Assembly: GCA_041495865.1 (NCBI GenBank)
Contig: JBGQDL010000001.1
Location: forward strand, 4,330-68,329
From: Thermoanaerobaculia bacterium
Lineage (GTDB): Bacteria > Acidobacteriota > Thermoanaerobaculia > UBA5066
Length of the DNA: 64,000 nucleotides
Direction: 5' to 3'
Part shown: in pieces, positions 28,010 through 50,471 of the stretch
Position numbering within the stretch: position 1 is the stretch's first letter
Layout of the letters: each line of letters starts with the position of its first letter
Notes under the pieces: generated by a model
Told to the model about the DNA's origin: nothing
Database searches by the model: none
The model's input: the letters and a program-made list of their open reading frames with translations, nothing else
Made by a program: the position numbers and the translations under genes

Positions 28010-30367
28010 TCAGCCGGCGCCGTCGAGCACCTCACGCACCTTTCGGGCGAGGGTGAGCGGCGAGAACGGCTTCTGAAGAAACGCGACGCCCGATTCGACG
28101 ATGCCGTGGCGCACGACCGCGTCGTCCATGTAGCCGCTCATGTAGAGGATCCTCAAGCCGGGGTTGTCCTCCGTCGTGATCCGCTCCGCGAACTCGCGTC
28201 CGCTCATCTCGGGCATCACGACGTCCGTTACGACGATGTGGATCTCGCCGGCGTGCGTGCGGGCCGCCTCGAGCGCCTCGGTCCCGTTCCGGGCCTCGAT
28301 CACCCGATAGCCCGTCGACTCGAGCGCGATCTTCACGATGCGTCGGACCGCATCCTCGTCCTCGACGACGAGCACGGTCTCCGTCCCACGCGGGAGTGCC
28401 CCGTGCGTGCTGCTCGCGCCGCGCGTCCGCCGCGGCGACTCCTGCGACGGGAGGACGACCGTGAAGGTCGCGCCCCTCCCCGGCTCGCTCTCCACAGCGA
28501 TGTCGCCGCCGCTCTGCTTTACGATGCCGTAGACCGTCGCGAGGCCGAGGCCCGTACCCTTGCCGGCCACCTTCGTCGTGAAGAAAGGCTCGAAGAGGTG
28601 GGCCTTCACCTCAGGCGGGATGCCGCTTCCGGTGTCCGAGATCGAAATCACAACCCGCGGGCGCCGTGCTCGCTTCCCGGTCTCCTCGAGGTCGACGGAG
28701 GCCGCCGGGTCGACGCTCCGCGTGCGGATCGTGATGCGGCCTCCGCGCGGCATCGCATCGCGCGCGTTCACGACGAGGTTCATGACGACCTGCTCGAGCT
28801 GACCCGGGTCGACCTTCACCCAGCTGGGGTCGGCGGCCAGGTCGGTCTGCAGGTCCACGTCCTCGCCGATGAGTCGGCGGAGCATCTTTTCGATCCCGGT
28901 GACGACCTCGTGCACGTCGACGAGCCTCGGCTCGAGGATCTGCTTGCGGCTGAACGCAAGGAGCTGCCGCGTGAGCGAGGCGGCCCGCTCGCTCGCGGAC
29001 CGGATGTCCGCCAGGGAGCCGCGCCGCGGGTCGTCCGCGGGGGTGTCGGAAAGGAGCAGCTCGCAGTTCCCGGAGATGACCGTCAGGAGGTTGTTGAAGT
29101 CGTGGGCGACGCCGCCCGCCAGCTGCCCGACGGCCTCCATCTTCTGCGCCTGGCGGAGCTGCTCCTCGAGGCGCACGCGGGCCGTGGCGTCCCGGCCCGC
29201 GGTGTGCATCAACCGCTTGCCGCCGACGACGACTAGGCTGTTGTTGAACTCGACCGCCACTTTTCCGCCGTCCCTCCTCCGGATCGGCGCTTCCGACAGG
29301 ATCTGCTCGCCCTCCAGGATGCGGCGATGAAAGGCTCGGTACGCCGCGAGATCGGGATCGTCGTGGAGGTCGGGAATCGTCATCGCCAGCAGCTCTTCCC
29401 GGGAGAAGCCCGTCAGCTCCGTCGCCGCGCGGTTGACGGCGACGAAGCGTCCCTGCTCGTCGCTCAGGAACACGGCGTCCCGCGAGCCTTCGAAGATCTG
29501 GCGCTGCCATTGAAGCGCGTCTTCAAGCTCGGTGTTGAGTCTGACGACGTTCGCCTCCGTCTTCTTGCGCCCCGTGATGTCCTCGATCATCGCGACCGTC
29601 CGCGTCGGTTGCCCGGCCGCGTCGCGGAGGACGACCATGTTCACGTTCACCCAGGCGATCGAGCCGTCCTTGCGGATGTACCGCTTCTCGATCCGGTACT
29701 CCGGGGCTTCGCCTCTCACGACCTTCCGGAACAGCTCCCAGTCCCGGTCGCGGTCCTCCGGATGCGTGATCTCGGGGACCCGCATCGTGAGCAGCTCGTC
29801 TTCCGAGTAGCCCGTGATGACGCACATTCTCGGGTTCACGGCCACCCACCGCCCCGTCGCGGGGTCCGCCTGCGCGACTCCCACGGGCGCAACGTCGAAC
29901 ATGGCGTGGAACCGCTTCTCGCTGACGCGCAGGGCTTCTTCGGTGCGCTTGCGCTCGGTGACGTCGAAGAGGACGCCGAACCAGAGCGTGCTGCCGTCCG
30001 CCTCGCGGCGTCCGGCGCTGCGGCCCTCGACCCAGACCTCGCCGTGGGGGCTCCTCACGCGGAACTCACCATGCCAGGGCTCAAGCGTCCGGTGAGCCGC
30101 CAGAACTTCGTCGAGAAGAGACTTCCGGTCGTCCAGGTGCACGCGGGAAAACGCGGCGCCTCCGCGTTCGGCGACCTCGCCGAGCTGGACTCCGAAAAGG
30201 TCCTGGAAGCCGGAGGAGACGATGGGAAACTGGTACGTGCCGTCGGGCCGGACCCGGAATTGGTAGATCACGAAGGGTGCGTTCGGGGCGATTTCGGCGA
30301 AGGCCCTTCCGAGCGCGGCGTCGGCCGACGAAAACCCAACGTCGCGCGACCCCGCTACGCGGTCCAT
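28010..30367 (-). CDS. Hybrid sensor histidine kinase (three PAS domains, HisKA, HATPase_c, C-terminal REC)
   Basis: H-box AHDFNNLLTVISG, N/G boxes (NLVVNARDAM, DTGSGIP, GTGLGLATVYG), C-terminal receiver VLVVEDEDAVRR...DVVMPEMSG. Confidence 0.85.
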   Translation of the reverse strand: MDRVAGSRDVGFSSADAALGRAFAEIAPNAPFVIYQFRVRPDGTYQFPIVSSGFQDLFGVQLGEVAERGGAAFSRVHLDDRKSLLDEVLAAHRTLEPWHGEFRVRSPHGEVWVEGRSAGRREADGSTLWFGVLFDVTERKRTEEALRVSEKRFHAMFDVAPVGVAQADPATGRWVAVNPRMCVITGYSEDELLTMRVPEITHPEDRDRDWELFRKVVRGEAPEYRIEKRYIRKDGSIAWVNVNMVVLRDAAGQPTRTVAMIEDITGRKKTEANVVRLNTELEDALQWQRQIFEGSRDAVFLSDEQGRFVAVNRAATELTGFSREELLAMTIPDLHDDPDLAAYRAFHRRILEGEQILSEAPIRRRDGGKVAVEFNNSLVVVGGKRLMHTAGRDATARVRLEEQLRQAQKMEAVGQLAGGVAHDFNNLLTVISGNCELLLSDTPADDPRRGSLADIRSASERAASLTRQLLAFSRKQILEPRLVDVHEVVTGIEKMLRRLIGEDVDLQTDLAADPSWVKVDPGQLEQVVMNLVVNARDAMPRGGRITIRTRSVDPAASVDLEETGKRARRPRVVISISDTGSGIPPEVKAHLFEPFFTTKVAGKGTGLGLATVYGIVKQSGGDIAVESEPGRGATFTVVLPSQESPRRTRGASSTHGALPRGTETVLVVEDEDAVRRIVKIALESTGYRVIEARNGTEALEAARTHAGEIHIVVTDVVMPEMSGREFAERITTEDNPGLRILYMSGYMDDAVVRHGIVESGVAFLQKPFSPLTLARKVREVLDGAG

Positions 30368-30656: not shown

Positions 30657-31103
30657 CTACCTGACCTCTTCCAACCGCCTCCAGGACGCCCATGTGATCT
30701 TCCAGCTTCCCTTCTCGAGCTCGAGCCGCAGCTCGAAACGCCAGCGCGATGTACGGGGCAATAGGCCCTCGAGGCCGGAGACGGCGCGGGGCTTGCCCGA
30801 CATCCCGACCCTGAACGTCGCGCGCGCGGCCTCTAGGCCCCTTTCGATGGCCACGTCCGTGAGGGTCAGCGAGATGCTCTCGTAGGCCGCCAGAGTGCGA
30901 CGGAGCAGATCGGCGGCGTCCGCCTTGCCGCCCCCATCCGCGTCGCGGAAGCCTGCGGAAAGACACCCGGCGACCGCTCCGGCATCGCGCGACTCGGCTG
31001 CCGCGGCCACGCGGTTGACGGTCTCGCGCACCGGATCGCGTGCCTCGCGGCCGCAGGAGGTCAGCAGTGTCACGGCCGCGGCCACGATGAGGCGCTTGAA
31101 CAC
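30657..31103 (-). CDS. Hypothetical lipoprotein (SnoaL/NTF2-like fold suspected)
   Basis: Signal peptide MFKRLIVAAAVTLLTSC with lipobox LTSC; 148 aa. Confidence 0.5.
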   Translation of the reverse strand: MFKRLIVAAAVTLLTSCGREARDPVRETVNRVAAAAESRDAGAVAGCLSAGFRDADGGGKADAADLLRRTLAAYESISLTLTDVAIERGLEAARATFRVGMSGKPRAVSGLEGLLPRTSRWRFELRLELEKGSWKITWASWRRLEEVR

Positions 31104-31118
31104 GGCGCCCTCGACGTC

Positions 31119-31946
31119 CTACTTCGGCGGAGCTCGGCGGGCCACGACGCTGTTGCCGTCGTTCGAGGTGTTGTTGACGTTGACGGCGTAGCAGTAAGCG
31201 ATCAGCGACGCGTCGTTCGCCGTCTGGCCGAAGAGCACGATGATGTCGTCTCCCGTGATCGGAACCGGCAGCTGCTGCCACGAAACGGGAAGCAGGTTCA
31301 GCGTGGTCGAGCTCCTGGTGAGATCGCCCCCGTTGAACGCGAAGAAGTCGACCTTCACCGACGACGCGATGGGGGCGAGGCTCAGGCAGCCGAAGTTGGC
31401 GCGGTTGCCGGCGTTGTTCTGGATGCCCGCCGCCACGAAGATCGCGCCCGGGGCGTCCGCGGGCGAGACGATGGCGTCGTCGGTGAGAATCCCCGTGACG
31501 GGCGTGGAGAATCGCCCGTTCGGGCCGTCGACGTAGACCTCCACGATTGCGATGAAGGGTTTGGACGTGTCTTCGGTGAGGACGAGCCCTCCGCCGCCGG
31601 TGTAGTCGAAGACGTCCTGCAGGAAGTTGTCCCAGCGCCGGAAGGAGCCCGCGGCGAGCGGCGGGAGGTTCAGGACGCGCGGGGAGACGACCGTCGTCAG
31701 GAGCTGCGCGTGGATCGTGATGTCGAACGCGTTGGGGTTGTAAAGCGTGACCTTCGTCTTGAAGAACGCGTCGAACAGCCCCAGCGTGTTCGCGACGGAC
31801 GGGAAGACGTAGCCGCCGCCGACCAGGGCGCTCGGCTCGCGGCCGGATTCGGCGCGCGCCGGAAGGGAGAGTGCCCCCGCCGCAATCAAGGCGAGCACGC
31901 CGGCGGCCGCGGGCGAAAGGCGACGGAGCGAATACTTCATCGTCAT
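31119..31946 (-). CDS. Secreted protein carrying one copy of an unrecognised ~190-aa domain (same domain as in 44285-50471)
   Basis: Signal peptide; YVFPSVANTLGLFDAFFKTKVTLYNPN... start motif and ...AYCYAVNVNNTSNDGNSV end motif, matching the repeated domain of the two large BNR proteins. Confidence 0.6.
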   Translation of the reverse strand: MTMKYSLRRLSPAAAGVLALIAAGALSLPARAESGREPSALVGGGYVFPSVANTLGLFDAFFKTKVTLYNPNAFDITIHAQLLTTVVSPRVLNLPPLAAGSFRRWDNFLQDVFDYTGGGGLVLTEDTSKPFIAIVEVYVDGPNGRFSTPVTGILTDDAIVSPADAPGAIFVAAGIQNNAGNRANFGCLSLAPIASSVKVDFFAFNGGDLTRSSTTLNLLPVSWQQLPVPITGDDIIVLFGQTANDASLIAYCYAVNVNNTSNDGNSVVARRAPPK

Positions 31947-32050
31947 ACTCCTGAAGACCCGGGAACCTTGCGCGGTCTGGGTGCATGATTATGCGCCGGG
32001 CGCGCGCTTCGCAAGGGAGCGCGCGTCTCTCGGCCGAGCGAGGAGGAACC

Positions 32051-32632
32051 ATGCCCGAGGGCCCGGAAGTCGAGACCGAGAAGCTGCACGAGGCCATCCA
32101 GGAAGAGCTGGAGCATGACGGCGGCTCGTTCCTGAAGCGGATCGCGCTCACGACGGCGCTTCTCGCGGCGTGCGCGGCGATCGCCGCGCTGCGCGCGGGT
32201 GCGACCGTGAACGAGGCGCTCGTCCTGAAGACCGAGGCGACGCGGTTACAGGCCGAGGCGTCCGACCAGTGGGCCTATTACCAGGCGAAGGGTCTGAAGG
32301 CCGCGGTGCAGGAGGCCTCGGCCACGGCGTGGCTCGCGATGGGCAAGGAGCCGCCCGCGAAGTACCTCGACGAGCGAAAGCGCTACCACGACGAGCAGGC
32401 CGAGATCAAGAAGAAGGCCGAGGAGAAGGAGCACGAGCGGGACGAGAAGTCGAAGGAGGCCGACCACCTGCTGCACGCGCACCACGGCTTCGCGAACACG
32501 GTCGCGCTCTTCCAGGTGTCCATCGCGCTCGGTGCCGTGGCCGCGCTCACGCGCAACAGGCTCGTGTGGTTCGGGTCGATGGGAGTGGGGCTGATCGGCC
32601 TCGCCTTCTTCGCGAAGGCCTTGCTGGGCTGA
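32051..32632 (+). CDS. DUF4337-family membrane protein
   Basis: AGGAGGAACC then ATG at 32051; N-terminal acidic region, TM helix, WAYYQAKGLKAAV..., Lys/Glu-rich stretch, C-terminal TM pair, the DUF4337 layout. The track ORF starts 22 codons upstream without an RBS. Confidence 0.6.
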   Translation: MPEGPEVETEKLHEAIQEELEHDGGSFLKRIALTTALLAACAAIAALRAGATVNEALVLKTEATRLQAEASDQWAYYQAKGLKAAVQEASATAWLAMGKEPPAKYLDERKRYHDEQAEIKKKAEEKEHERDEKSKEADHLLHAHHGFANTVALFQVSIALGAVAALTRNRLVWFGSMGVGLIGLAFFAKALLG

Positions 32633-33822: not shown

Positions 33823-35151
33823 TCAGAACGCCACGCGAAGCGTGAGAAGCCCCTCGTCCGGGTGGAGAACCCCTCTCCTCGTCGTGGCCTCGTTGCGCGA
33901 GTACTCGACCGTGAGGTCGAGGCCGCGCACGATGCCGAGCCGGAAGCCGAGGTCGAATTTGCGCCAGTCCCACCCGACGGACGGCTCCACGGAGCCGGGC
34001 GACGGATCGAAGAGGTTGTCGATGTACGAGGCGCGCAGCGCGGGCTCGATCCAGTTCACGACGGACTGGTCGCCCGACGCGAAGAGCCCCGGCAGCGGGA
34101 TGCGTACCGAGAGCTCGGCCTCGTAGCCCTCGCGCCCGAGGCCCGCGATGGACTGCTTCACGCCCTGCCCGAAGAAGTGCACGGGGCCGAAGCGTGCCTC
34201 GAGGTTGACGCCGTACTCGCGCTTTTCGGTGCCGGAGACGGGCAGGGAAAGACCCTGCAGCAGGCGAAGGTCTCCCGAGATGAACGTACCGCGGAGCGAC
34301 ACGCGGTCGGCGAGGCCACGCCGGAAGTACCAGCCGAGGATCTCGACGCCTTCGCGGCGGTTCTCGCCCCAGTTGAAGCGCAGACCCATGCCGCCCCCGA
34401 CCTGGAACCGGCCCGAGAGGCCCGCGTCGGTCGCCATCGTGTCGTACAGGATCGGGAACCCGGAACCGTAGACGGCCGGCGCCGTGGAGCCCGCGGCGTG
34501 CTCAGGCGTGCCGTTGTCGCCCGCGAGGGCGTTGACGTCACGGTAAAAGAGCGGCGTGCCGCCCGTGGCGCTCGCGCGCCAGTAGACGTGCGGTCCGAAC
34601 GAGCCGCCCGCCTCGGCGCCCGTCTCCTCGAAGCGGTTCACGGCCGTGCCCCACAGGCCGTAGCTCTCGAGACGCCGCGCGATCTGCTTCGAGAAGCGCG
34701 GCGCCTTGCCGAGCTCGAGATACGCGGTAGTGCCGGGCATCTCCTTCAACGCTTCCCACTTCTTCCCGAACCGCACGAAGGCCTCGCGGAGCTGAATGCG
34801 GTCGGCGCTGGAGGTGGGGTTGCGGTTGTAGAGATCGAGGAAGTGGACGACGACGCGCGCAAGAAGATCGGACGTGAGGTCGCCCTCGGCCGTCAGCGCG
34901 ATGTTCGAGATCTCGGCCGAGGTGTGCGGCGAGACGGTCTGCAGGACGACCGGGATCGGCGCGCCCGTGTTCGCCACGGGGAAGTCGAGGGAGGTCGACG
35001 TGCGCGCGTTGACCTTCATCTCCACCTTTAGCCGGAACGCGCCGGAGTCGGTGGCGAGGGCGCCCGCGCCGAGCAACGAATCCTGCGCGCGCGCGGCAGG
35101 CGCGCGCAGGAGGACGAACGTGAGAACGATCGCTCGAGGAACGCGCCGCAC
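33823..35151 (-). CDS. Outer-membrane beta-barrel protein (porin-like)
   Basis: Signal peptide; alternating amphipathic beta-strands; C-terminal ...LTLRVAF with terminal Phe typical of OMPs. Confidence 0.55.
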   Translation of the reverse strand: MRRVPRAIVLTFVLLRAPAARAQDSLLGAGALATDSGAFRLKVEMKVNARTSTSLDFPVANTGAPIPVVLQTVSPHTSAEISNIALTAEGDLTSDLLARVVVHFLDLYNRNPTSSADRIQLREAFVRFGKKWEALKEMPGTTAYLELGKAPRFSKQIARRLESYGLWGTAVNRFEETGAEAGGSFGPHVYWRASATGGTPLFYRDVNALAGDNGTPEHAAGSTAPAVYGSGFPILYDTMATDAGLSGRFQVGGGMGLRFNWGENRREGVEILGWYFRRGLADRVSLRGTFISGDLRLLQGLSLPVSGTEKREYGVNLEARFGPVHFFGQGVKQSIAGLGREGYEAELSVRIPLPGLFASGDQSVVNWIEPALRASYIDNLFDPSPGSVEPSVGWDWRKFDLGFRLGIVRGLDLTVEYSRNEATTRRGVLHPDEGLLTLRVAF

Positions 35152-36558: not shown

Positions 36559-38547
36559 TCAGCGAATGGCCGCGAGCGCCTTTTCCGTCTCGGCGAGGAG
36601 CGCCTCGGGCCCGACGGGCGCGCCCGTGGCCTGCGTCATCCAGAGGTCGGGCGCGATGTTGCCCAGCCTGGCCATGCGCTCGAACTCGGGTCCGATCGCT
36701 CCGGTTTTCTCCATCTGCCGCTCGATCTGGAACGCGATCATGTGGCCGATCGGATAGTCCGGCAGGTAGAGGAACGAGTCGATCATGTGCGAGTAGACCG
36801 CCAGGAGCGTGACGTCCTTCTCGCCGAGGACGCTCGCGAAGAAACGGTTCCACACGTCGCGCGCGATCGCGAGCGTCGCCTTCTTCAGCTCGGCGGGCGT
36901 GGCCTCGGGGTGGTCGTACATGTAGTGCCACACGCCCATGTCGACGAGGGCGACGCCCGCGATCTCGTACGTGCCCCAGAACGCGTCGAGCGTCTGCTGC
37001 GCGCGCGCCTCGGCCGAGGGCTTCGCGAGGCCGAGCAGCTCGAGGTCGTGGCCCTGGAAGACGAACGCCAGCGCTTCGGTGAACGCCGTGTTCGGTACGC
37101 CCTGAAGGAGCGGAAAGTCGATGTCGTAAAGGGAGAACGTCTGCTCGACGTTATGCCCCATCTCGTGAACGGCGATGTTGTAGCCCTTGTAGTTCATGCC
37201 GTCCTTCTCGACGCGCGTCCTGAGGTACGCCTTGTAGCCCCTGAGGCCGGCGCCCGACGCGTGACCCGAGCCGCGCGCGGGATGAACCTCGATGCGGGAC
37301 GCGAGGGTCTCGGCCTTCTCCTTCGCAAAGCCGAGCTTCACGAGGATGTTCGGGATGTCCTTCGCATACGCCTCGGGCGTCGGGTACTTCGCGCGCACGA
37401 GGGCGTCCAGGTCGGCGGCGGACCGCGCAGCCTGCGGCCGGAAGCCGGGGTACCAGACGTCGACGGGCGAAAGCTCTCGCCCGAGCCGCCTCCCGACGAG
37501 GGCCGCCACCTTCGGGACGAGCGGCGACGAGAGCACGTCCTCGAGCATCTTCCTGACCCGCGCTTCGGGGATCTGGCGGTCCTCGTCGAACTTGCGAGCG
37601 AGGAACGTAGGCGCCGTCGGCGAGTAGGGATCTGCCTGCTTCACGGCGCGGAAGCACGCGAGAAGCGTCGCGTAGCGGATGTCGGGCTCGGGGCCCGGAG
37701 CGGCGTCCGCCGCCGGAACGTCGGCGTCCTCGACGGAGGCGCGGCGCGTTTCGTTCGTGAAAGGGTTCCAGTCGACGTTCGGGTTGTCGACGACGGCGCG
37801 CGGAATCGTCTGGTCGACGATGCGCTCCATGACCTTGCGGATGGCGCGCTGCTTCGCGGGCCCTCTCTCGCGGTCGGCGTAGTCGGACTTGATCTCGTCG
37901 CGGAGGTTCCAGTGCGAGAGGAGCCGCATCTTCGCCGGAAAAAGGCGCGTGCCCTTCTCGTCCACGAGGTGGTGCATCCAGATGTTGTACGCGGCGATGT
38001 ACTGGGCCGAGTCGGATTGGGCCTTCGCGATCGCGAGATTCACGCTCGCGGGGATGCGCGTCGCGAACCGGTCGGCGAGGCGCGCCTCGGCCCACTGGCG
38101 GCGCGTCCACGTGCCGCCGAGGCGGAGTTTCTCGTCGAGCGTGTACACGGGGAAGTTGAGGAGCGCCGTGAAGGCGAGCTTGTCGTCGAAGAGGTCGTCC
38201 GTGACGTGCGCGCCCGGGTCGTAGCCCGCGAGCACCTCGTCGAACGGGAGGATCGGCCCGCGGTCGAGGTCCACGTGCATGCGGAGGTCGCGGCCGGCCT
38301 CGCGCATGTGACCGTCGAGCGAGGTGAGCGCGGCCGCGAGCCGCGTGAAGAGCGCGTCGCGCGCCGCCGCGTCGGCCGCCGTGTTCGCCTTCGCGAACGC
38401 CTCGAAGGCCGCCGCGTCGCCGTCGGCCGGACGCCACAGCGCGGCGGCCTGCTTTTTCCCGCGAGCCTGCTCGGGCGTTTCGGCGAGTGCGGCAGACATG
38501 GCGAGTCCCAGGAGGACGAAGAAGAAGAGATTCTTGCTCCCTCTCAT
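36559..38547 (-). CDS. Secreted gluzincin-type zinc metallopeptidase
   Basis: Signal peptide MRGSKNLFFFVLLGLAMSAALA; HEMGH at IAVHEMGHNV with a downstream Glu (FTEALAF) 26 aa after the motif. Confidence 0.7.
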   Translation of the reverse strand: MRGSKNLFFFVLLGLAMSAALAETPEQARGKKQAAALWRPADGDAAAFEAFAKANTAADAAARDALFTRLAAALTSLDGHMREAGRDLRMHVDLDRGPILPFDEVLAGYDPGAHVTDDLFDDKLAFTALLNFPVYTLDEKLRLGGTWTRRQWAEARLADRFATRIPASVNLAIAKAQSDSAQYIAAYNIWMHHLVDEKGTRLFPAKMRLLSHWNLRDEIKSDYADRERGPAKQRAIRKVMERIVDQTIPRAVVDNPNVDWNPFTNETRRASVEDADVPAADAAPGPEPDIRYATLLACFRAVKQADPYSPTAPTFLARKFDEDRQIPEARVRKMLEDVLSSPLVPKVAALVGRRLGRELSPVDVWYPGFRPQAARSAADLDALVRAKYPTPEAYAKDIPNILVKLGFAKEKAETLASRIEVHPARGSGHASGAGLRGYKAYLRTRVEKDGMNYKGYNIAVHEMGHNVEQTFSLYDIDFPLLQGVPNTAFTEALAFVFQGHDLELLGLAKPSAEARAQQTLDAFWGTYEIAGVALVDMGVWHYMYDHPEATPAELKKATLAIARDVWNRFFASVLGEKDVTLLAVYSHMIDSFLYLPDYPIGHMIAFQIERQMEKTGAIGPEFERMARLGNIAPDLWMTQATGAPVGPEALLAETEKALAAIR

Positions 38548-38650: not shown

Positions 38651-41600
38651 CTATGGCAGCGGGACGGAGGTGATTGCGCCCTCCGCGATGTTGAACGTCG
38701 TGCCGCCGCCGCTGTCCAGCGTGAGGACGTAGCTGCCCGGCGCGAGGTTCGCGAGGCGCCTGAAGCCGGTCTGGCCGCTGGCGTCGGCCGTGATCGCGAT
38801 GCGTCCGTCCGCGCTGAAGAGTGTGTACGGGTAGGGAACGCCCGCCGCGGTCTTCAGCGTCCCGCGCACGATGCCCTTCACGAAGGACTTCGGCCCGACG
38901 GCGATGTCGGCCGAGCCGCCCGGTGTGAGGGTGACAGGCACGGGCTGCTGCGAAGGTGCCGACACGCTCGCGAGGTAAACGGTCGCGTAGCCGCTCGCGT
39001 TCACGAAGATGGCGTACCCGCCCGGCTTGAGCGACGGGATCTCGCCCGCCCCGTTCGTGTCGAGCGCGATCGAGCCCGTGAAGACGGCGGACTGGTTCAC
39101 ATCGAGGACGCGTGCCATGACGCTGCGCAGCGGCACACCGTAGATTCCGTCCCTCACCTGGATGCCGATTCCCTGCCCGCGCGCGAGCTCGACGGAGACA
39201 TTCTCGCTGCTGCCGTCGTCGGCCGCCGTGAGGCTGCGCTTCTCGAACTGGTAGTCGGTCTTCTGGGAATTGAGCGTGTAGGCCTGCGGCACGATGTCCG
39301 CGAACTGGAAGTGCCCGTTGCTGTCGGTCGTCGTCATGCGCTGCATCGCGACGCTGCCCGTTCCTCCCGCCGAGGCGAGGGAGACGGTGGCGTCGGCCAG
39401 CGGCTGCTTCGTGTCGGCGTCCGTGACGACCCCGGCCACCTTCGCCATCGGGAATGTCAGGTCGAGGCTCTGGTCGTTCGTGAGCGAGACGGTCTGCCTG
39501 ACCTGTGAGCCGCCGCCGGCGAGCGGATCGCCCATGGCGGTGACGGTGTACGAGCCTTCCTGGAGGCCCTGCAGCGCGTAGCCACCGCCCTCGTCCGCGC
39601 GCGTCGTCGCCTGGCGGCCGCCGCCGCCCTGCAGGTTCGCGACGACCATGGCGTTCGCGACAGGCTGGCCCGCGCGCGTGACGTGACCGCTCAGCGCGAA
39701 TCCGACGTCGAAGACGATCTCCGTCTGGAGGACGGGCACGTCGTCGCTCGCCGTGACCTGCTTCGTCGCGCTGCGCGACGTGCCGAGGCCGTCGCCCGCC
39801 TGCGCCCGAAGCGTCACCGGGCCCGCCGGCACGCCCGAGACCGCGAAGGTGCCGTCGGCGCCGACCTTCGTGCTCGCGAAGAAGGCCTGGGCGCCCGTCA
39901 CCATGACCGTCATCCCGCTCCGCATCGTGTCGGGCAGGCCGGATACGGTCCCCTGGATCGTCGAGCCCGCAGAAAGCGAGAGCACGAGGTCGCTCTTCGA
40001 ATCGCCCGCCTGGAGGACGAACTCCGAGAGGCTGCTCGACTTGCCGTTCATTCCAGCCGACACCGAGTAGCGGCCCGCGCCAAGGTGATCGAAGTGGAAG
40101 CGCCCCGCCGCGTCGGACGTCGTCGTCTGGCTGCCCCCCAGGATGCGGCCGAACCCCGTGTCCCCGGCGGCCGAGAGCGCGACCTCCGCGCTCGGGAGGG
40201 GCTGGCTCCCGGCCACGACGACGCCGCTCGCGGAGCCGCCGGTCGTGAGCTTGATCTCGACGGTGCCGCCCGTCTCCTTGACGTCGGCCACTTCGCTGCC
40301 GTCGGTGTAATCGGGGTTCTTCGCGGTGACCTTCAGGCGCCCGACTCCGATGCCGTCGATCTCGAAGTTCCCCTCCGCATCCGTGGTGACGTCGCCTTCG
40401 CCCCCCAGCGCGGCGAGGGGACCGCCACGACCGCCGAATCCGCCCGGGCCTCCGCTGCCCGCCACTTCGTGCGTGATGCTCGCGTTGGCCACGGGACGCC
40501 CGGTGCGGGCATCCGTGACGCGGCCCTTGAGGACGACGCCCGGCGTCGCGCGCACCTCGACATGGTCCTTGACGCCGTTCTCCTCGACGACGAGGTTCGC
40601 GACGCGCGCCTGCTGATACCCCTTGGACTCGACGACGACGGTCCACGTCCCCGACGGCACGTCTTCGAGCGCGAATGTGCCGTCCTCCGTGTTGACGTCG
40701 CGCTTCTGGCCGATCCCCGTCTGCGCGCCCGCGCCGCGCGCGACGAGCCGGATGATGGCACCGCCGCCGCGGTCCGGCTCGTACGAGACCGAGAAGTTCC
40801 TGAGCGGCTGACCGCTCCGCGCGTCCAGCGCGGTCCCCGCGATGCGGCCGGTGCCGGCCACCACGAGGTCGACGTTCGCGGCCGGCGCCACGACGCCGTG
40901 CTTCTGCGGTCCGAGGCCAACGCCGCCGAACACGGACAGGTCGTAGACCTGGCCCGGCTTCAGCCCTTCGATGACGAAGAGGCCGTCTGGACCCGTCGCG
41001 AGGTCGGTGCCCGTGCCCGCGAAGGGCCCCCCGGCACCGGCCGCGCCGCGGCCGCCGGTCCCCACGCGCACCAGGTATCCCTCCGCGCCCTCACCGCTCT
41101 TCTTGCGCACGATGCCAGCAATGCTGGCCCCGGGGCCGAGCGTCACGGCCACTCTCTCCGCGCCCGTGTCGGTCACCTTGACGGGATCGACCCGCTCGTT
41201 CGCGAAACCGGACTTTCGGACATGCAGCGCGTACTCGCCCACGGACATGCCCGTGATGTGGAAAGTGCCGTCGGCCGCCGTCTTCGTCTTCGGCCGCTGG
41301 CTCGGGCCGCCGAGGCGCGCGAAGTTCGCGACCATGCCTCCGGCGCCCGCGCGGAAGTTCACGGACGGATCGACCTGCACTTCGACGTCCGCGATCGGCT
41401 GGTCGTTCGCGTCCTTCACGACGCCCGAGATCGTCGCGCCGCGGCGCATCACGATCGCCACGTCGCTCTTCGTCCCGCCCGAAGGCAGGGAAAGTCCGGC
41501 GAGGGTCGCGCGCTCGAAGTCGGCGTGGCTCACGGTGAGGCGCTGGTTGTCCCCCGGGAAAAGGCGCGTCGCCTTGAACGTGCCGTCCTGGCGCGTGCGA

Positions 41601-42941
41601 AACGCCGTCGTCTCGCCGCCGACGCGCAGCATCCTTCGAATCCCCGCGATCGCGTTCTCGCCGCGGCGATTGAGCGTCCCCCGGGCCGCGGGGACAGGAG
41701 CGCCGTTTTCGTCGACGACCTTGCCGATCAGAGTGGCTGAAAGCGAGACCGCGACGTCGAGTCGCCTCGCCTCACCGGGCGCGAGCGCGAGCTCCGGCTT
41801 CACCCACGGCACGTAGCGCGCCTCGTCGACCGAGAGCCGGTACGTCTGGGGTGGAACGCCCTTCAGGTGGTAGAGGCCATCCGGTCCCGTGCGCGCGAGG
41901 CGGGCAAAGCCGTTCGCCTTGACGAAGACTTTCGCGCGCGGGACGACGCGCCCCGTCTTGTCGTCTACGACCTTGCCGTCGAGCGACGCGGGCAGCGCAA
42001 GCGTGATCGTGAGCGACTTGCCCTCGCCGAGCGGCAGCTTCACGTCCGGCCGGCTTCCCCAGCCGGCTTCTCCCGCATCGACGACGATCGTGCCGCGCCC
42101 GTCGGGCGCGTGCGGGATCGTGAAACGCCCCTCGGCGTCGGTCTCGACCCATCGCGTCGTCGCCCGGGTGCTCTCGAAACGCACGAGCGCGCCTGCAGTG
42201 GGCTTCTTGTTCGCACCGAGGACGGCGCCCGTCACCGGATCCCCCGCGAGCGCCGCGATCGGGCGCGGAACCGCGCCCGCCCGGAGGCCGGTCTCCCGCG
42301 CCGGCGCGAGCCCGGCCTTCTCGATCGTGATGCGGTTCCCCGTGGCGCTCGCCTCTTCGAACTGGAACCTGCCGTCCTCGCCCGTGACGGCGGTGCGGGT
42401 CACGACGCGATACGCGAGGTCGTCGCCGCTTGCGACGCCGGGCTCGAGCGAGACCGCGGCTCCTCCGAGCGGCTTGCCGGAGGCGTCGACCGCGATCCCC
42501 GAGAGCTTTTCGCCGTGCGGCAGGATGTGCTCGCCCAGGTCCTCGGTCTCGGCAGCATCGTAGACGCCTTCAAAGAGCACCGGCACGATGCCCGCTCCCT
42601 CGGCCCTCACCGAAAAGAGCCTCTCCTTGCCCGGCTCGGCCGGCGGGACCGTGAGCACGAAGGACCCGTCCGGCCCGCTCGTCGCCGAGGCGAAGGGCTT
42701 CGGCGCCTCGCCTCCCTTCATCTCACGCCGGGCCATTTCTCCGGGCGTTTCCCAGGGAACCGCGGAGATCGTGACGCCCGGCGCAGGCTTGTCCGCGCGG
42801 TCTGCGACGAGGATGCGGCCACGGATCTCGCCCGCGCCCGCCGGAGCCGTCAGGACGAGGGAAGCCACGAGCGGGACGATTCGACTCACGAAAGCCGCTG
42901 GGAACTTGACCACGGGGAGATCCTCCACGCCGAATTGACCC
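38651..42941 (-). CDS. Giant secreted protein of about 15 tandem carboxypeptidase-regulatory-like (CarboxypepD_reg / Cna-B-type) beta-sandwich domains
   Basis: GGAGGA RBS then GTG 42941; signal peptide; recurrent ~85-aa unit GxVxDxxGxPxxxAxVxxxx...TxxDGxFxxxxLxxGxYxLxxxxxGF repeated along 1430 aa. Confidence 0.75.
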
Positions 42942-43124
42942 TCAGGGGGGTCGATTGGGAAGCAGCGAGCAACTCCAGGGCCATGCGGCTCCGCCGCCAC
43001 GGGGTCATTCAGAGCAAGACGCCCGCGACGAAGAAAGGTTGCGTCCCGCCGTGGGTCGAGCGCGGGCCCGGGGGAAACATGTGGAACACTATCAGCGGCT
43101 CACGAAGGGAGGATTCGTGCCTTC

Positions 43125-43847
43125 TTGGTCACAGGATCGCGGACACGCGAGGAGACCCGCGTGAGCGCCGAGGAACCCCTGGGCACGCGCCCCGCCTACC
43201 GGCTCTGGGCGGCGACGTACGACGTCGAGAACCCGCTCACGACGATGGACTCGCTTGCCGTGCACTTCTTCTCGCACGACATCGAGGGAAAGGCCCTGCT
43301 CGACGCGGCCTGCGGCACCGCGCGCCGGCTCGTTTTTCCGAAAGGGCACGGGCCGAAGAGCGCCTGCGGTGTGGACCTCGTCTTCGAGATGCTGGCCGCC
43401 GGCCGCCGCGACCCCGCGCGGCCGCGCACGACCGCCGGCGGCGACCTCAAGGCACTGCCCTTCGGCGCGGAGCGCTTCGACGTCGTGTGGTGCCGGCTCG
43501 CGGCCGGCCATCTGCTCCGGATCGCGCCGCTCTACCGGGAGCTCGCGCGGGTTCTTCGCAGGGGCGGGTACACCGTCGTGACGGATTTCCACCCGGACGC
43601 CATCCGGCGGGGCCACGCGCGCGCGTTTCGCGACGCCTCGGGAGCCGCGCACGTCGTCGAACACGTCGTGCACGATGTCGCCGCCCACGAAGCCGCCGCG
43701 CGCGAGGCGGGTCTCACCTTCGACGCCTCGGGCTCGCTCGGCGTCGGCGCGGAGGTCTGGCCCTTCTACGAGCGCGCCAAGAAACTCGACCGCTATGCGA
43801 AGGACGCGGGCCTGCCGCTCCTTCTCGCGCTGCGCTTCTCGAAATGA
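43125..43847 (+). CDS. Class I SAM-dependent methyltransferase
   Basis: LLDAACGTARRL (motif I GxGxG-like), DVVWCRLAAGHL, RVLRRGGYTVVTDFHPD; start may be GTG 43158. Confidence 0.65.
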   Translation: MVTGSRTREETRVSAEEPLGTRPAYRLWAATYDVENPLTTMDSLAVHFFSHDIEGKALLDAACGTARRLVFPKGHGPKSACGVDLVFEMLAAGRRDPARPRTTAGGDLKALPFGAERFDVVWCRLAAGHLLRIAPLYRELARVLRRGGYTVVTDFHPDAIRRGHARAFRDASGAAHVVEHVVHDVAAHEAAAREAGLTFDASGSLGVGAEVWPFYERAKKLDRYAKDAGLPLLLALRFSK

Positions 43848-44284: not shown

Positions 44285-47200
44285 ATGAGACGACGTATCG
44301 AGGTCCGCGGTTGGCGCGCCCGCGTCATTCCCGTGGCGCTGCTCACGACTTTTCTGACGGCTGCGCCCGGGCGCGCGGGCCTCGTCTTCTCCCCCGTGGA
44401 AACGCTCCCAGGCGCGGACGCGACCGCGCTCGCCGGAGGCGGCGCGACGCTCTGGGCAGCGACGCCGCGCGGCGTGTGGCGCCTCGAAGGAGGCGCGTGG
44501 ACTCTCGACGGGCTCTCGGCGCGGACGGTCTCGTCGATCGTCGTCGCCGATACCGTTTACGCGGCCGACGGCGAGCAGGTGTGGCGGCGCGGGGTCGACG
44601 GGACCTGGACCCCGGAAACTCTCCCCGGCGCAGTCTCCCGTCCCTCCCGTCTCGCGACGGATGGAGCGGCGGTGTGGGCAGCGGGCCTCGGCGTCGCGAA
44701 GCGCTCCTCCGGAACCTGGGCGGCGCTCGCGAATCCGGGCGCACTCGTGACCGCGGCGGCCGTCGTGTCCGGCGATCTCGCCGTCGGCATGCGCGGCGGC
44801 GCGGCGCAGTACGCCGGCGCGTCGGTCACGCCGATCTCGACCGGGCTTCCGGTCGCGTCCACGGTTCAGGCGCTCGCGAGCATAAGCGGCGCGCTCTACG
44901 CCGGCACCGACCGGACGCTCTATACGTTCGCGGGCTCATGGACCCCGGTCCCCGGCTTCGGAACGCACGACGTGCGCGCCATCACGGACGCGGGCGGCAC
45001 GGTGCGCGTGGCGACCGCCGACGCGGGGGTTCTCTCCCGCGCGGGAACCTGGCTGGCCACGAACACGGGACTCCTCGTCGCGTCGGCGAAGAGCTTCGCG
45101 ACGCTGGGAAGCGATCTCTACGTCGGCACGGCCGGCGCGCCCATTTACCGGCTTTCCGGGAGCTCGTGGAGCGCGGCCGGAACCGGGCTCTACGCGGCGT
45201 CCATCGCCGAGGTGAAGACCGTCATCGGCGAGACGTTCGTCGGCGCGCACGGGGCCGGCATCACCGTGGTCCCCGGGGGGAATTTCGCCCCGGAGGGCTG
45301 CGGAGACGTGCGCGCGATGGCGGCCAACTCCGTGAACCTTTTTGCCACCACGAATTGTCATCTTTACGTCTGGCCTCTCGGGCCGAGCGTGTTCAACCCG
45401 CCTTCGGTCGTGGAGGACGGTTTGCCCCCGGGCGTCGCCATCAGCTCGCTCGCGGCGGTTTCGGACCTCAGCATCGCCGGCGGCACGCTGAACGCGGGAA
45501 TGTGGCGGTTCGTGCAAAGCACGTGGTCGTCCGACAACGCGGGCCTACCCGCGAGCGGAAGCGTGCTGACGGCTCGGGAGGTGGGCGGGAAGCTCTACGC
45601 CTCGGTGGGATCGAGCCTCTTCGTCCGCCAGGAGAGCGCCTGGCAGGCGTCCACCGGCGCTCCCGCGTTCGTGCAGGCGCTCGGCGGCGACGCGAGCGTC
45701 GTTTTCGCGGGGCCGGCGTCCGGCGGAATCTCGTCCTCGTCGGGCGCGTGGCGCAAAGACGCCTTCGGCGCGAACACGGCGTTCGTCTCGTCGTTCGACG
45801 CGGACGGCCGTTTCGCCGTGGCGGGCGCGGGCACCGCGGGAGTCCTGCGAAGGACAGGCGGCGGCTGGCAGCCGGAGAACTCGGGACTTCCCGCGGGCGC
45901 GGACGTGCGCGTGGTGCGCCGGAGCGGCGACGCCGGTAACCTGTACGCGGGCACGGCGGGTCACGGGCTCTTCCTCGCGTCGACGACCTCGTCCGCGAAG
46001 TACATCCCCGTGGTCCTCGACGTGACGGGCGCCACCGGCGCGCGCTTCCGATCCGACCTCACGCTCGGAAACCGCTCGACCGAGCCCGTGACGGTCACGG
46101 TGGGCTTCGTCGGCGCACCCGACTTCGCCCTGCCCGCGGACCACGGCTCCTTTGCGGTCTCGCTGGCGCCCTCCTCGGAGCTGCGCGCGCCGGACGCGCT
46201 CCAGTTTCTCCGCGACCGCGGCCTCGCGATCACGCCCGGCGCCTCGGGCACCGCGGGCTCGATCTTCGTCGCGGGCGACCCGCAGGCGCTTCCCTCGGAC
46301 GCGACCGACGCCGTGTACGCCTTCTCGCGCACGTACACGGCCGGCGCCGCCGGGAGCTTCGGCACGTTTCTCGACGCCCCGTCCGACCTCGACGCCGCCG
46401 AGGACGAAGGCTCGATCTACGGGCTCCGGAGCATTTCCGGCACATCGCGCTCGAATCTCGCCGTCGGTCACGTCCCGGGCCGTGGCGGCGAGTCCGTGTC
46501 GCTTTCCATCCAGGTGTACGACCAGAGCGGCGCGGCCGCGGGCGCGCCGATCCTCACGACACTGAACCCGGGCGAATGGAGGCAGTTCAACGGAATCCTC
46601 GGCCTCGCGGGGTTGCCCGATGGCGCGTATGGCTACGCGAAGATCGCGCGCACGCACGGAACCGGAGCGTGGACCGCCTATGGGGTCGTGAACGACGCAA
46701 AGACGTCCGACGGCTCGATCCTGCCGCTCTACCGGCCCGGCGGCCTCGCCGCCGCGCGGAGGCTCGTGGTGCCCGTCGTTCTCGACCTGTTCGGCGCCGC
46801 TCTGTCGCACTACACCACGGAGGTGACGCTGGCGAACGACGGCGATTTCCCGACGCCCGTGGACCTCGTCTACCGGCCGGCGCCGAACTTCGGGTCCTCG
46901 ACAGGCGTGCCGGTCGTCACGCTGGCGCTCGCCGCGCACGAACAGACGACGGTCCCGGACGTCCTCGCGTATCTGAGGGCCCACGGCGTCAACATTCCCG
47001 ACCCTTCGACGGGGCCGCAGGCCGGATCGCTCTCGATCGACTTCCGCAACCTCGGGGGCCTCGACGGGCCGAAGACGGTTGCGCTCGCGCGCACGACGAC
47101 GCCGAACACGGACGCGGAGACGGGTGGCGCGTTCGGCGTCGCCTACCCCGGAGTCGCGAAAGGCGGCGGCGCGCGCGCGTCGGCGCTCGTGCCGGGCCTC

Positions 47201-47527
47201 ACGCGCGACGCCTCCGTGCGCTCGAACCTCGCCGTGGTCCACCTCGGAGGCGGTTCGGAGATCCCGCTCTCGCTGTCGGTCCGCCTCTTCGACGCGGCCA
47301 CCGGGCAGGCCGTGGGTAGTCCGATCACCGTCACGCTGCAGCCGGGCGACTGGACGCAGTGGTCGGGCGTCTTCGATACCGCGGGCGTGCCCGCGGGCAC
47401 GACGACAGCCTATGCGGTGGTCACCCGGGTCGCCGGCGACGACACCTGGCTCGCGTACGGCGTGCTCAACGACGCGGAGACGTCCGACGGCAGCATTCTC
47501 CGGATGCTCTCGGCCAGCGAATACTGA
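44285..47527 (+). CDS. Large secreted protein: N-terminal beta-propeller-like W-repeat region plus two copies of an unrecognised ~190-aa C-terminal domain
   Basis: Signal peptide MRRRIEVRGWRARVIPVALLTTFLTAAPGRAG; about 600 aa of GxWxxxxxGL-type blades; domain copies start YIPVVLDVTGATGARFRSDLTLGNRS and LVVPVVLDLFGAALSHYTTEVTLAND, each ending YGVxNDAxTSDGSIL. Confidence 0.7.
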   Translation: MRRRIEVRGWRARVIPVALLTTFLTAAPGRAGLVFSPVETLPGADATALAGGGATLWAATPRGVWRLEGGAWTLDGLSARTVSSIVVADTVYAADGEQVWRRGVDGTWTPETLPGAVSRPSRLATDGAAVWAAGLGVAKRSSGTWAALANPGALVTAAAVVSGDLAVGMRGGAAQYAGASVTPISTGLPVASTVQALASISGALYAGTDRTLYTFAGSWTPVPGFGTHDVRAITDAGGTVRVATADAGVLSRAGTWLATNTGLLVASAKSFATLGSDLYVGTAGAPIYRLSGSSWSAAGTGLYAASIAEVKTVIGETFVGAHGAGITVVPGGNFAPEGCGDVRAMAANSVNLFATTNCHLYVWPLGPSVFNPPSVVEDGLPPGVAISSLAAVSDLSIAGGTLNAGMWRFVQSTWSSDNAGLPASGSVLTAREVGGKLYASVGSSLFVRQESAWQASTGAPAFVQALGGDASVVFAGPASGGISSSSGAWRKDAFGANTAFVSSFDADGRFAVAGAGTAGVLRRTGGGWQPENSGLPAGADVRVVRRSGDAGNLYAGTAGHGLFLASTTSSAKYIPVVLDVTGATGARFRSDLTLGNRSTEPVTVTVGFVGAPDFALPADHGSFAVSLAPSSELRAPDALQFLRDRGLAITPGASGTAGSIFVAGDPQALPSDATDAVYAFSRTYTAGAAGSFGTFLDAPSDLDAAEDEGSIYGLRSISGTSRSNLAVGHVPGRGGESVSLSIQVYDQSGAAAGAPILTTLNPGEWRQFNGILGLAGLPDGAYGYAKIARTHGTGAWTAYGVVNDAKTSDGSILPLYRPGGLAAARRLVVPVVLDLFGAALSHYTTEVTLANDGDFPTPVDLVYRPAPNFGSSTGVPVVTLALAAHEQTTVPDVLAYLRAHGVNIPDPSTGPQAGSLSIDFRNLGGLDGPKTVALARTTTPNTDAETGGAFGVAYPGVAKGGGARASALVPGLTRDASVRSNLAVVHLGGGSEIPLSLSVRLFDAATGQAVGSPITVTLQPGDWTQWSGVFDTAGVPAGTTTAYAVVTRVAGDDTWLAYGVLNDAETSDGSILRMLSASEY

Positions 47528-47611
47528 CCGGGCCGAGAAAGGTCGTCCCGCCGGCCTACACTTACAGAGGAACCGCACCCTTTTCGGCGGAGCGGCTTCG
47601 AAGGAGCCTTC

Positions 47612-50471
47612 GATGACCCACTTCCGGCCAGGCCGCGTCGCGGCCCTCGCGTCGTTCGTCCTCCTTGCGCTCTCCGGCCCGGCGTCCGGCCGCGTCATCT
47701 CCTATGCCCCGCTCACCGGGCGGCCCGCCACGCCGGCCGTCCAGAAGAGGACGAACCGACACGCGCTGCTCATCGAACAGACCGGCGGCGTCTTCCTCGC
47801 CGGCGGCCCCGCGTGCTGCTACGGGTCGGCATTGGGGCGCCTCGTCCTTCACGACAGCTCGGGGCTGGAAGAGCCGCGGGATGTGACGCCCGGCGGCCTC
47901 GACGCCGGTATCGACTTCGCAGCCGCACGTGAGGACCCCGGCCATCCACCTGTTCTCCTGGCGCACACGGCCGCGAGCCTTTCGGCAGGAGAGAATCCCA
48001 ACGGCCAATTCCGCTTCCTTTTCAGCTCCGACGGGGGCGCGACGTGGTCGGTACTCGCGCTCCCCGCCGCGGGCGCATACGTGCCGTTGTCCGTGGACAT
48101 CGGCGGCCCGTTCGTGAGGGCGCGCGGCTCGGCCATCCGCGTCGGCACCGCTGAGGCACCTTTCCTCCTCGCGCTTTACGAGCAGAATACCCAGCAGATC
48201 GGCCTCCCGAACGCCATCGGCCTCTGGGATGTCTCGGCGAACGGCGGCGTGAGGCGCAGGACTTTCTTTTCGGCCGACAGCACCATCATCGGGATGGACG
48301 CCGAGGGGCGGCGCGCACTCGTCACCGGGACCCCGGTTTCCCCGCCAGGACCGAACGGAGGGCCCCCTGCGACACCCGGACTCTACGCCGTGAACGCCGA
48401 CGGCACCGCGCAGGCGCTCTCGGAACTTCCCGCCAACACATCGTTTTCGGAAGGGTGGATCACTCCGAACGGCCGGGCATACGTGGAGGTCGATACATAT
48501 GGCGCGTCCGGGGCGCGGCACGCGGTACTCCTCGCCGGAAACGGCGGCCGGCTCGAGATCGCGTCGGCCCTGAATCCGAATCCGACCGACCTCTTCGCCG
48601 TCCCGACGGCCGACTTCTCGGGCGCGTGGATCCTCCAGCGCGGCACGGGGCCGACGGTGCTCGCGCTCCACACGCCGGCCGCGGGCCTCGTCGAGGCCTG
48701 GCGCGACGTGGCGCGCCCCGAGGTCGAAGCGCTCTACGCGGGCGCCTCGGGGAAGCGCCTTCTCGTGCAGGTCCACCGCCCGCGCCCGCAGGTCGACCAG
48801 CGTGTGTTCAGGGACCCCGCGCTCGCCGTGTGGGAGGTCGGAAAGCCCGCGCCGGCCTCGTACGACGAGCTCTTCCTGAACGAGCAGACCATGAAGGCCT
48901 TCGTTCACGTGGATCCGGACACGGTCGGGCAGGGCGAGCCTTTCCTGTTCGACTCCGGAAGCCCGTCGCTCGGGATTCTCGTTCCGGCGGGCGGACCGTC
49001 GGGCGCCAGCGGCGGCGCGGACGTGATCCAGGAGTGGGGCGTCGTGCGCGGCTCGCTCGTGCAGCGCCTCGTGATCCCGGCGAACGCGCGCGTGGATGGC
49101 GCGAACGGAAGCCGGTGGCGGACCGACCTCGTGCTCCGGAATCCGGACGCTCTCCCCGTCGCCGTCACCGTGCGCTTCCTGCCGAACCCCGGCACGGCTT
49201 CCGCCGTTCCCGACGCGAGCGTGTCGCTCCCCGGTAACGCGGTCGTGACGGAGAGCGATGTCCTCGCGTCCCTCTTCCAGGTCGAATCAGGCTCCGGAGC
49301 CCTTCTCCTGACTCCCGAGATCGGCCGGTCGATCGAAGCGACGAGCCGCACCTTCACGAGCACGCCGGCCGGCTCGTACGGGATGTCGGTGGGCGCCGTC
49401 GACGTCTTCGCCGGGATCGGGGCCGGCTTCCCCGTTTCCTTCGCGGCGGGCCTCCTCGGGCCCGGGTTCCGCACGAACGTGCTCGCGACCGACGTGAGCG
49501 GGCGCGGCGCGCAGGCGGCGCTCACGCTTTCGGCGGACACGGCCGACCCGACTGCCGGTGCCGGGCTCCTCGCGGCGCCGGCCTGGGGACAGGTACAGGT
49601 CAACGATCTCGCCGCGGCGCTCGGCGCGCCGTTCTGGAGAACGGGCTCCCTCCTCGTGAGTCCGCAGTCGGGCGAGACTGTCGTCGGCGCCATCGCGATC
49701 GACGGCACGACGAACGACCCGACGTACTTCCCGCCGGACATTCCCGCCACCGTCGTGCGCACGATTCCGGCGATCGTGCACGCGGACGGGGCGCACGGAG
49801 CCGCCTTCAGGAGCGATCTCTTTCTCTTCAACCCGGCTGACGGCGTCCGCACCGTGCGCCTTCTCGTCAAGAGCTGGAGCGCGAACGAGCCCGAACAGAC
49901 CCTTCTCCTCACCCTTCTTCCCCACGAATCGAAGACGATCCGCGACGCGCTCCTCACCGCGTTCGGGAGGACCGGCGTCGCGCGGCTGCGCTTCCAGACG
50001 GACACCTTCGCCGACGTCTCGGGCGGCGTGCGCGTGACGTCCCGGACCTATACGGCGGGGCCTTCGGGCGGCACGTACGGACTCCTCCTTCCGGCGCTCA
50101 ACTCGTTCCAGTCAGCGGGCGGCGGAGAAGCGCTCGAGATCCTCCTGCCGGCGGGCGGAAGCGGATTCCGCACGAACCTCGCGCTCGTCGAGCTCACGAC
50201 CTCGTTCGTTTCCGGCCCGCCGGTCGCCGTGCGCGTCGAGGTCTTCGATGAGCACGGCCTCCTGCGCGACCGATTCGAGACGCCGCTGCCGCTCGCGGGC
50301 GGCGTCCAGACCGACGACCTTTTCCACGGCCGCGGCCTCGGAGACGGACCGCCGTCGGGCCACATCCGGATCTCGCCCGCGGGCGGCCTCGTGGCGGCCT
50401 ACGCGAGCGTCATCGACAACGGGACGAACGACCCGATGTACGCCGCCGCGCAGCTCGCCGCGAAGGACTGA
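47612..50471 (+). CDS. Large secreted BNR/Asp-box propeller protein plus two copies of the same unrecognised C-terminal domain
   Basis: AAGGAG RBS; signal peptide; Asp-box FSSDGGATWSV; domain copies start LVIPANARVDGANGSRWRTDLVLRNPD and TIPAIVHADGAHGAAFRSDLFLFNPAD, ending AIAIDGTTNDPTYF / ASVIDNGTNDPMY. Confidence 0.7.

Follow-up and report, generated by a model that had tools for sequence, protein, structure and literature searches.

The window analysed here, a stretch of 64,000 nucleotides (G+C ~70%) from a Thermoanaerobaculia bacterium of the phylum Acidobacteriota (GenBank assembly GCA_041495865.1, contig JBGQDL010000001.1, positions 4,330 to 68,329 of the forward strand), contains three genes for secreted proteins, referred to below as A, B and C, which share a repeated extracellular domain. 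Two tandem copies close the protein encoded by gene A, two more close that of gene B, and gene C encodes a single copy. Profile comparisons place these copies in a very large domain family with a fixed-pair architecture, in which two domains, D1 and D2, travel together at protein termini; by the same comparisons the domain is absent from the family libraries searched and was previously unannotated. By analogy with known anchoring modules, we favor (with a probability of roughly 40%) an interpretation of the D1-D2 cassette as a generic localisation module, which would provide for the non-covalent retention of its carriers on a lineage-specific polymer of the envelope or matrix.

The repeated domain in genes A, B and C

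Gene A (44285..47527, plus strand; 1080 aa) encodes a signal peptide, a double beta-propeller and two domain copies, A1 (45998..46744; residues 572-820) and A2 (46757..47524; residues 825-1080), the latter forming the end of the protein. Gene B (47613..50471; 952 aa, secreted) follows downstream on the same strand after a gap of 85 bp, and its product carries copies B1 (49062..49739; residues 484-709) and B2 (49755..50468; residues 715-952), of which B2 again ends the protein. Gene C (31119..31946, minus strand; 275 aa, secreted) consists of a signal peptide and one domain copy (31122-31817; residues 44-275). A signal-peptide-like start could be read straight from the translation of all three genes. 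An earlier note, made from the letters of the window, had placed A and C at the same coordinates, which the open reading frames (ORFs) and translations uphold, and had recognized the small secreted product of gene C as the fifth copy; its start for gene B (47612) was one base out of frame. The exact protein encoded by gene A is present in NCBI with no name attached, and that of gene B in NCBI and JGI as "hypothetical protein".

The repeated unit is a genuine protein domain. The pairwise BLAST comparisons gave E-values of 1e-40 for A1/A2, 5e-17 for B1/B2, 2e-12 for A1/B1 and 6e-10 for A1/B2, with a weak match for the copy in gene C (2e-4 for B1/C). Independent profiles, built from D1 or D2 sequences of 140 further proteins of unrelated architectures with the A and B orthologues excluded, detected all copies over their full length, the E-values at a nominal database size of one million being 1e-54 (A1), 4e-64 (A2), 2e-8 (B1), 2e-14 (B2) and 7e-10 (C). 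Such a full-length match to a profile from unrelated architectures, which we used as a test of family membership, was thus obtained for the copies of A, B and C; two adjacent terminal copies are present in A and in B, and C is a single-copy variant belonging to its own subfamily of 264-273-aa secreted single-domain proteins. The six-frame scan of the whole window revealed exactly five copies and no sixth, in agreement with the original count, and the tandem C-terminal arrangement proposed for A and B is supported by both BLAST and the independent profiles. The length of a copy is 226-256 aa across the five and not ~190 aa as first estimated; the spacing between the two copies is 4-5 aa in A and in B. 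The opening motif (P-h-V ... G ... F-R-[ST]-D-L-x-L-x-N) and the closing motif (A-Y-G-V-x-N-D-x-x-T-[SN]-D-G), both quoted in the earlier note, are present and fall in the best-conserved columns of the alignment.

The libraries searched comprised Pfam-A (2025), NCBIfam (2026) and PDB sequences. A, B and C yielded no Pfam-A or NCBIfam match at E<=1, the cassette-only relatives likewise matched neither library, and two domain profiles found nothing significant among PDB sequences, so that the description of the domain as unrecognised stands for these three libraries. In the 45 diverse and 16 other members scanned, no Pfam or NCBIfam family covered the domain. A match to a well-known carbohydrate-binding module (CBM) or immunoglobulin (Ig) family, the finding named beforehand as speaking against a new domain, was looked for and did not occur: no CBM, Ig or fibronectin type III (FnIII) model lay over the domain in any of the same members. 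The source names seen for relatives were all "hypothetical protein", and the literature that we consulted on the taxon, on PF17517 and on sorting domains returned no description of this domain.

PF17517 (IgGFc_binding) is the sole curated family with a sequence signal, confined to the second sandwich half of some A-like relatives. Two of them exceeded the gathering threshold of 25.6 bits (P0006 with 35.4 and P0009 with 27.1 bits; positions 23-97 of 297), and three further relatives remained below it. The signal suggests a remote relationship limited to a single sandwich, with only ~75 of the 297 profile positions covered; typical cassette-only proteins have no match, and neither do A, B and C (E<=1), which are not members of PF17517. 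The family represents the N-terminal domain of FCGBP and its bacterial homologues, for which no independent function has been established; in assays, full-length mouse Fcgbp failed to bind immunoglobulin G, and so did a human construct with the N-terminal domain (PMC8267560). The PF17517 match carries no functional information.

Architecture, fold and partners of the D1-D2 cassette

An exhaustive HMMER profile search of 1.84 billion cluster representatives (50% identity clusters) identified 11,337 protein clusters at E<=1e-3, including 3,053 at E<=1e-30. Among the best 150 of the 11,337, the high-scoring sample from which the architecture counts are taken, each and every member has exactly two copies (D1-D2), with a median spacing of 4 aa. 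The pair ends within 15 aa of the C-terminus in 128 of these proteins and starts within 60 aa of the N-terminus in 22; long flanks on both sides of the pair were seen in only 7. Compared with the domains of other proteins, D1 is closest to another D1 in 149 cases out of 150, the same ratio holds for D2, and a domain closer to its own partner than to a foreign domain was encountered only 4 times in 300. By these comparisons D1 and D2 are separate old lineages, and their like-to-like best matches show that the pair is an ancient unit, shuffled whole onto different proteins.

The C-terminal tails are short and polar, stopping 9-11 residues past the D-G motif, and they display no transmembrane tail, no outer-membrane-protein signal and no other sorting signal after the pair. 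The handful of extension sequences that were read do not end in a recognisable sorting tail either, and a lipobox-like motif was found in only 5 of 136 proteins. An outer-membrane-protein beta-signal, a transmembrane tail and a lipobox were each considered as the real anchor and ruled out on the basis of these tails and of the lipobox count.

The AlphaFold2 (AF2) model of copy A1, obtained with a 25-sequence alignment (predicted local distance difference test score, pLDDT, 90.9; predicted template-modelling score, pTM, 0.86), falls into two halves, with 16 strands and two short helices in all. Profiles of half 1 and half 2 align with each other (hhalign E 4e-6, probability 87%), pairing F-R-T-D-L-x-L-x-N with R-S-N-L-A-x-x-N, which argues for an old beta-sandwich duplication in each copy. 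In these models, each domain copy is an internal duplication of two beta-sandwiches, and the two related halves previously suspected in every copy are supported by the profile alignment, by the two-half model and by the two-sandwich nature of the PDB fold matches. The latter, as detected by Foldseek for a single copy, each contain two sandwiches, apart from the single sandwich TM1070, which matches one half; the best of them, the matrix scaffold RbmA and pilins (Spy0128), are loose. The top match, RbmA from Vibrio cholerae (E 7e-6), is a secreted biofilm-matrix protein which also has two tandem beta-sandwiches (FnIII), but the template-modelling (TM) score of 0.24, the root-mean-square deviation of ~19 Å and the identity of 11% indicate that only the generic two-sandwich layout is common to both. 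The residues R, R-x-N, W-x-Q, Y and D-G are invariant in both D1 and D2, and no His, Cys or Ser of a catalytic type is invariant in the domain alignment. The cassette is acidic, with a median pI of 5.1, and Cys is usually absent from it. We regard the repeated unit as a non-catalytic extracellular domain of ~240 aa.

The full-length AF2 model of gene A (pLDDT 90.1, pTM 0.87) shows a double propeller with beta strands throughout residues 35-566 (44387..45982). Most blades contain a G-x-W motif, and the Asp-box count is 0. The best PDB matches of this region are BT4663, BT3049 and BT4673 (E ~1e-17), together with PorZ (5m11); in the comparison with BT4663, a Foldseek probability of 1.0 stands against a TM score of only 0.2-0.3, which is due to a difference in the relative domain positions. 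BT4663-type proteins are periplasmic glycan sensors of the Bacteroides hybrid two-component systems (HTCS; Reg_prop plus Y_Y_Y), and as the best PDB matches (E 1e-17 to 1e-15) they and PorZ have in common with the model of A that beta-sandwiches follow the propellers. On the other hand, the identity is 9-13%, gene A has no transmembrane or kinase part, and its C-terminal sandwiches are the new cassette instead of Y_Y_Y or the C-terminal domain of the type IX secretion system (T9SS). The orthologues of gene A show Reg_prop (PF07494) matches only below threshold, and gene A had no BNR match in the Pfam-A search. As modelled, the N-terminus of A is a double propeller that looks like the two-component-regulator (Reg_prop/HTCS) type, not BNR.

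The N-terminal region of gene B (47691..49061; residues 27-483) is lineage-specific. It contains one canonical Asp-box (SSDGGATW at residue 138), and no Pfam match was found in B or in any of 43 homologues. Its profile retrieved only sialidases from PDB (14 matches out of 14, all weak, best E 0.003), and this region may be a sialidase-like propeller. The two N-termini are not homologous to each other by profile comparison (hhalign E 0.36), despite a weak BLAST match. The earlier note had assigned a BNR/Asp-box propeller to both proteins; neither matches PF02012 or PF13088 in Pfam, and the assignment fails for A, leaving B with its one Asp-box and its weak sialidase likeness.

The Pfam domains accompanying the cassette in the 45 diverse members include PKD (14), Sortilin-Vps10 (7), TIG, NHL, Big_9, SGL, BNR, Vgb_lyase, FGE-sulfatase, subtilase, cadherin-like and others. 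The NCBIfam partners are choice-of-anchor Z (3 members, plus P0135), choice-of-anchor Q and ScyF-like NHL, and an M36 peptidase partner is matched best by the models of the myxosortase-, T9SS- and rhombosortase-dependent forms. The regions downstream of N-terminal pairs are equally varied (Kelch-like, FGE-sulfatase, NHL and metallophosphoesterase-like). The term "choice-of-anchor" denotes domains of surface proteins that bear one of several alternative anchors (bioRxiv 10.1101/2023.03.06.531300). Judged from these assignments, the cassette partners are varied surface-type modules, and the earlier note was right in that these proteins have the look of cell-surface proteins.

A proposed localisation module and its rivals

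From the architecture of the family we infer both an anchoring or localisation function and the ligand. The D1-D2 pair (~480 aa, four sandwiches) would act as a fixed cassette at one end of Sec-exported proteins, holding a variable business end on the cell envelope or within the extracellular matrix by attaching non-covalently to a lineage-specific polymer of either. The business end would be the glycan-sensor-like double propeller in gene A and possibly a sialidase-like propeller in gene B, with gene C providing a free-standing single copy. In this role the cassette would fill the slot taken in other phyla by PEP-CTERM, by T9SS C-terminal domains or by MYXO-CTERM. A localisation module is suggested by the presence of a fixed, terminal and non-catalytic cassette on dozens of unrelated surface-type partners, with many paralogues per genome; it is also suggested by the lack of another anchor signal in proteins whose partner domains elsewhere need C-terminal anchors. 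Non-covalent retention, the version that we prefer, permits N-terminal as well as C-terminal placement, as in CWB2 and SLH. The CWB2 triplet and SLH domains are tandem copies of fixed number, found at one end or the other of large paralogous sets of secreted proteins that are often encoded in gene arrays, and they anchor proteins non-covalently to a surface polymer, with different functional domains attached. We use CWB2 (of Clostridioides difficile) and SLH as a working analogy, based on the fixed tandem number, the placement at either end and the paralogues; they differ from the cassette in having no sequence match to it and another fold class, and the carrier here is a diderm member of Acidobacteriota.

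Several observations weigh against this interpretation. No general conserved neighbour that could point to a ligand pathway or to a machinery emerged across 79 family loci. The whole-domain fold matches are generic (TM <= 0.34) and thus provide no functional information. The architecture counts, including the two copies in 150 of 150, come from a sample biased to high-scoring two-copy proteins. Finally, a sorting tag would account equally well for the strong C-terminal bias (85%) and for the conservation of the extreme C-terminus. Such a tag, recognized by an outer-membrane translocation or attachment machinery of this lineage and perhaps then removed or modified in a T9SS-like manner, is the main rival to retention, although we consider it unlikely. 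It would account for the 128 pairs at the very C-terminus and for the conservation of the terminal motif D-G-S-Y-V-P-M plus 2-5 residues. The cassette occupies the same slot as the T9SS C-terminal domain, PEP-CTERM, MYXO-CTERM and GlyGly-CTERM and has the same cargo (choice-of-anchor, M36 peptidase), that is, families relying on C-terminal sorting signals elsewhere. It also resembles these sorting domains in being lineage-restricted (in the searches run) with many paralogues per genome, and the T9SS C-terminal domain in its beta-sandwich fold, and the layout of gene A, a double propeller with C-terminal beta-sandwiches, is reminiscent of the T9SS component PorZ. On the other hand, ~15% of the best members bear the pair directly after the signal peptide, which true C-terminal signals do not; at ~480 aa, compared with 30-100 aa, the cassette is several times the size of the known tags and ends without a transmembrane tail; no NCBIfam or Pfam model of a sorting domain (T9SS, PEP-CTERM or others) matched it; and neither a dedicated machinery nor a recurrent gene for one was found in the 79 loci.

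The same modularity, with a minority of members carrying an N-terminal or internal pair, would also suit a lectin- or CBM-like module that targets a substrate, carrying the attached domain to an environmental polymer (for instance a plant, fungal or microbial glycan) and not to the cell's own surface. In line with this idea, which we likewise judge improbable, the invariant positions hold polar or aromatic side chains (R, N, Q, W, Y, D) of the sort typically found where sugars are bound, free-standing secreted single-domain forms such as gene C exist, the partners in A and B look glycan-binding or glycan-processing, and some of the weak fold matches are CBMs. However, most partners in the family fall outside the glycoside hydrolases and lyases, being propellers, PKD, NHL, proteases and FGE-sulfatase-like domains, a strictly double and strictly terminal arrangement is unusual for CBMs, and none of the CBM families matches. 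A purely structural role without a specific ligand, as a rigid stalk, an oligomerisation unit or a lattice unit of an S-layer- or pilus-like kind, appears very unlikely. In its favor, a tandem-sandwich scaffold (RbmA) and pilins (Spy0128) are the closest fold matches, the packing of the full-length A model is predicted with confidence (pTM 0.87), and the invariant pattern, being the same in D1 and D2, is compatible with a pseudo-dimer; single-copy proteins could conceivably pair and so mimic the cassette. Yet spacers usually vary in number and drift in sequence, and across more than 150 architectures the cassette always has two copies and an invariant set of polar residues.

Neighbouring genes, taxonomic range and implications

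Gene B is convergent with a gene for a DUF2339 membrane protein, followed by a major facilitator superfamily (MFS) transporter. The order A-B-DUF2339-MFS...DUF4147/MOFRL is kept in locus L080 (73% identical) and partly in L081 (43% identical). DUF2339 was considered as a functional partner and rejected, since outside its own orthologue group no relative retains it; with no general neighbour across the 79 loci, the link is local synteny and not a system. DUF2339 does lie beside B, as noted earlier, and a conserved block with it is not supported. The commonest neighbour family is TPR-CHAT (9 of 79 loci); Ser/Thr kinases are seen at 8 loci, the majority from a single orthologue group. Large TPR+CHAT proteins are found beside three cassette orthologue groups (L001, L025 and L072; L039, L043 and L052; L057 and L059), the CHAT gene in L039 and L043 lying directly upstream on the same strand. 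A sub-system may lie behind this proximity, or it may be due to chance in genomes rich in CHAT.

Directly upstream of A lies an ORF resembling S-adenosylmethionine-dependent methyltransferases (~43170-43847, plus strand) and not a lipoprotein, although the earlier note had put a WxxGxW lipoprotein next to the pair; a minus-strand ORF overlapping the methyltransferase-like one looks spurious. The opposite strand encodes, two genes upstream of A, a protein of 1449 aa in which CarboxypepD_reg repeats occur 12 times (38651-43000, minus strand). Further away, also on the minus strand, are a secreted protein of 662 aa that has the zinc-metalloprotease motif HEMGH and no Pfam match at E<=1e-3 (36559-38547), and a 442-aa signal-peptide protein ending in ...LTLRVAF, with the look of an outer-membrane beta-barrel and no Pfam match (33823-35151). 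Gene C is flanked by a gene for a DUF4337 protein (31985-32632, plus strand) and by a weakly SnoaL-like 148-aa ORF (30657-31103, minus strand), and a PAS histidine-kinase/receiver hybrid (28010-30367) adjoins these flanking ORFs.

The named relatives belong to Thermoanaerobaculia, to Holophagales or to unclassified metagenome-assembled genomes (MAGs) of Acidobacteriota, with a few from Terriglobia. The genome scan used peptide patterns of one D2 subtype, toward which the taxonomic picture is biased, and the range is therefore a lower bound. In the searches run, the family so far appears restricted to Acidobacteriota, mainly Thermoanaerobaculia and Holophagales. Two loci, L038 and L075, come from a single bin (MFD05454.bin.1.192), a MAG labelled Acidimicrobiia; mis-binning, mislabelling or horizontal transfer could explain this exception. 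Up to eight cassette loci were found per MAG, including arrays of 3-5 cassette genes (L005, L050 and L078).

Overall, one domain without a Pfam-A, NCBIfam or PDB-sequence entry accounts for more than 11,000 protein clusters. The cassette marks what looks like the main surface or extracellular protein set of these bacteria, and a profile of it would let annotators flag such secreted proteins in metagenomes. Were it a mere beta-sandwich spacer, the gain would be limited to a useful domain-family entry. An anchoring or sorting role, which is plausible, would imply an undescribed route of protein display in diderms and would provide a handle for surface display or for the matching envelope polymer. 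It is possible, although doubtful, that D1-D2 defines a new localisation system peculiar to this lineage of Acidobacteriota, in which a dedicated receptor polymer or machinery would attach dozens of secreted proteins per genome to the surface. Soils, sediments and wastewater commonly harbour Thermoanaerobaculia and Holophagales, few of which have been cultured; if true, the D1-D2 system would be their counterpart of T9SS C-terminal domains or PEP-CTERM.

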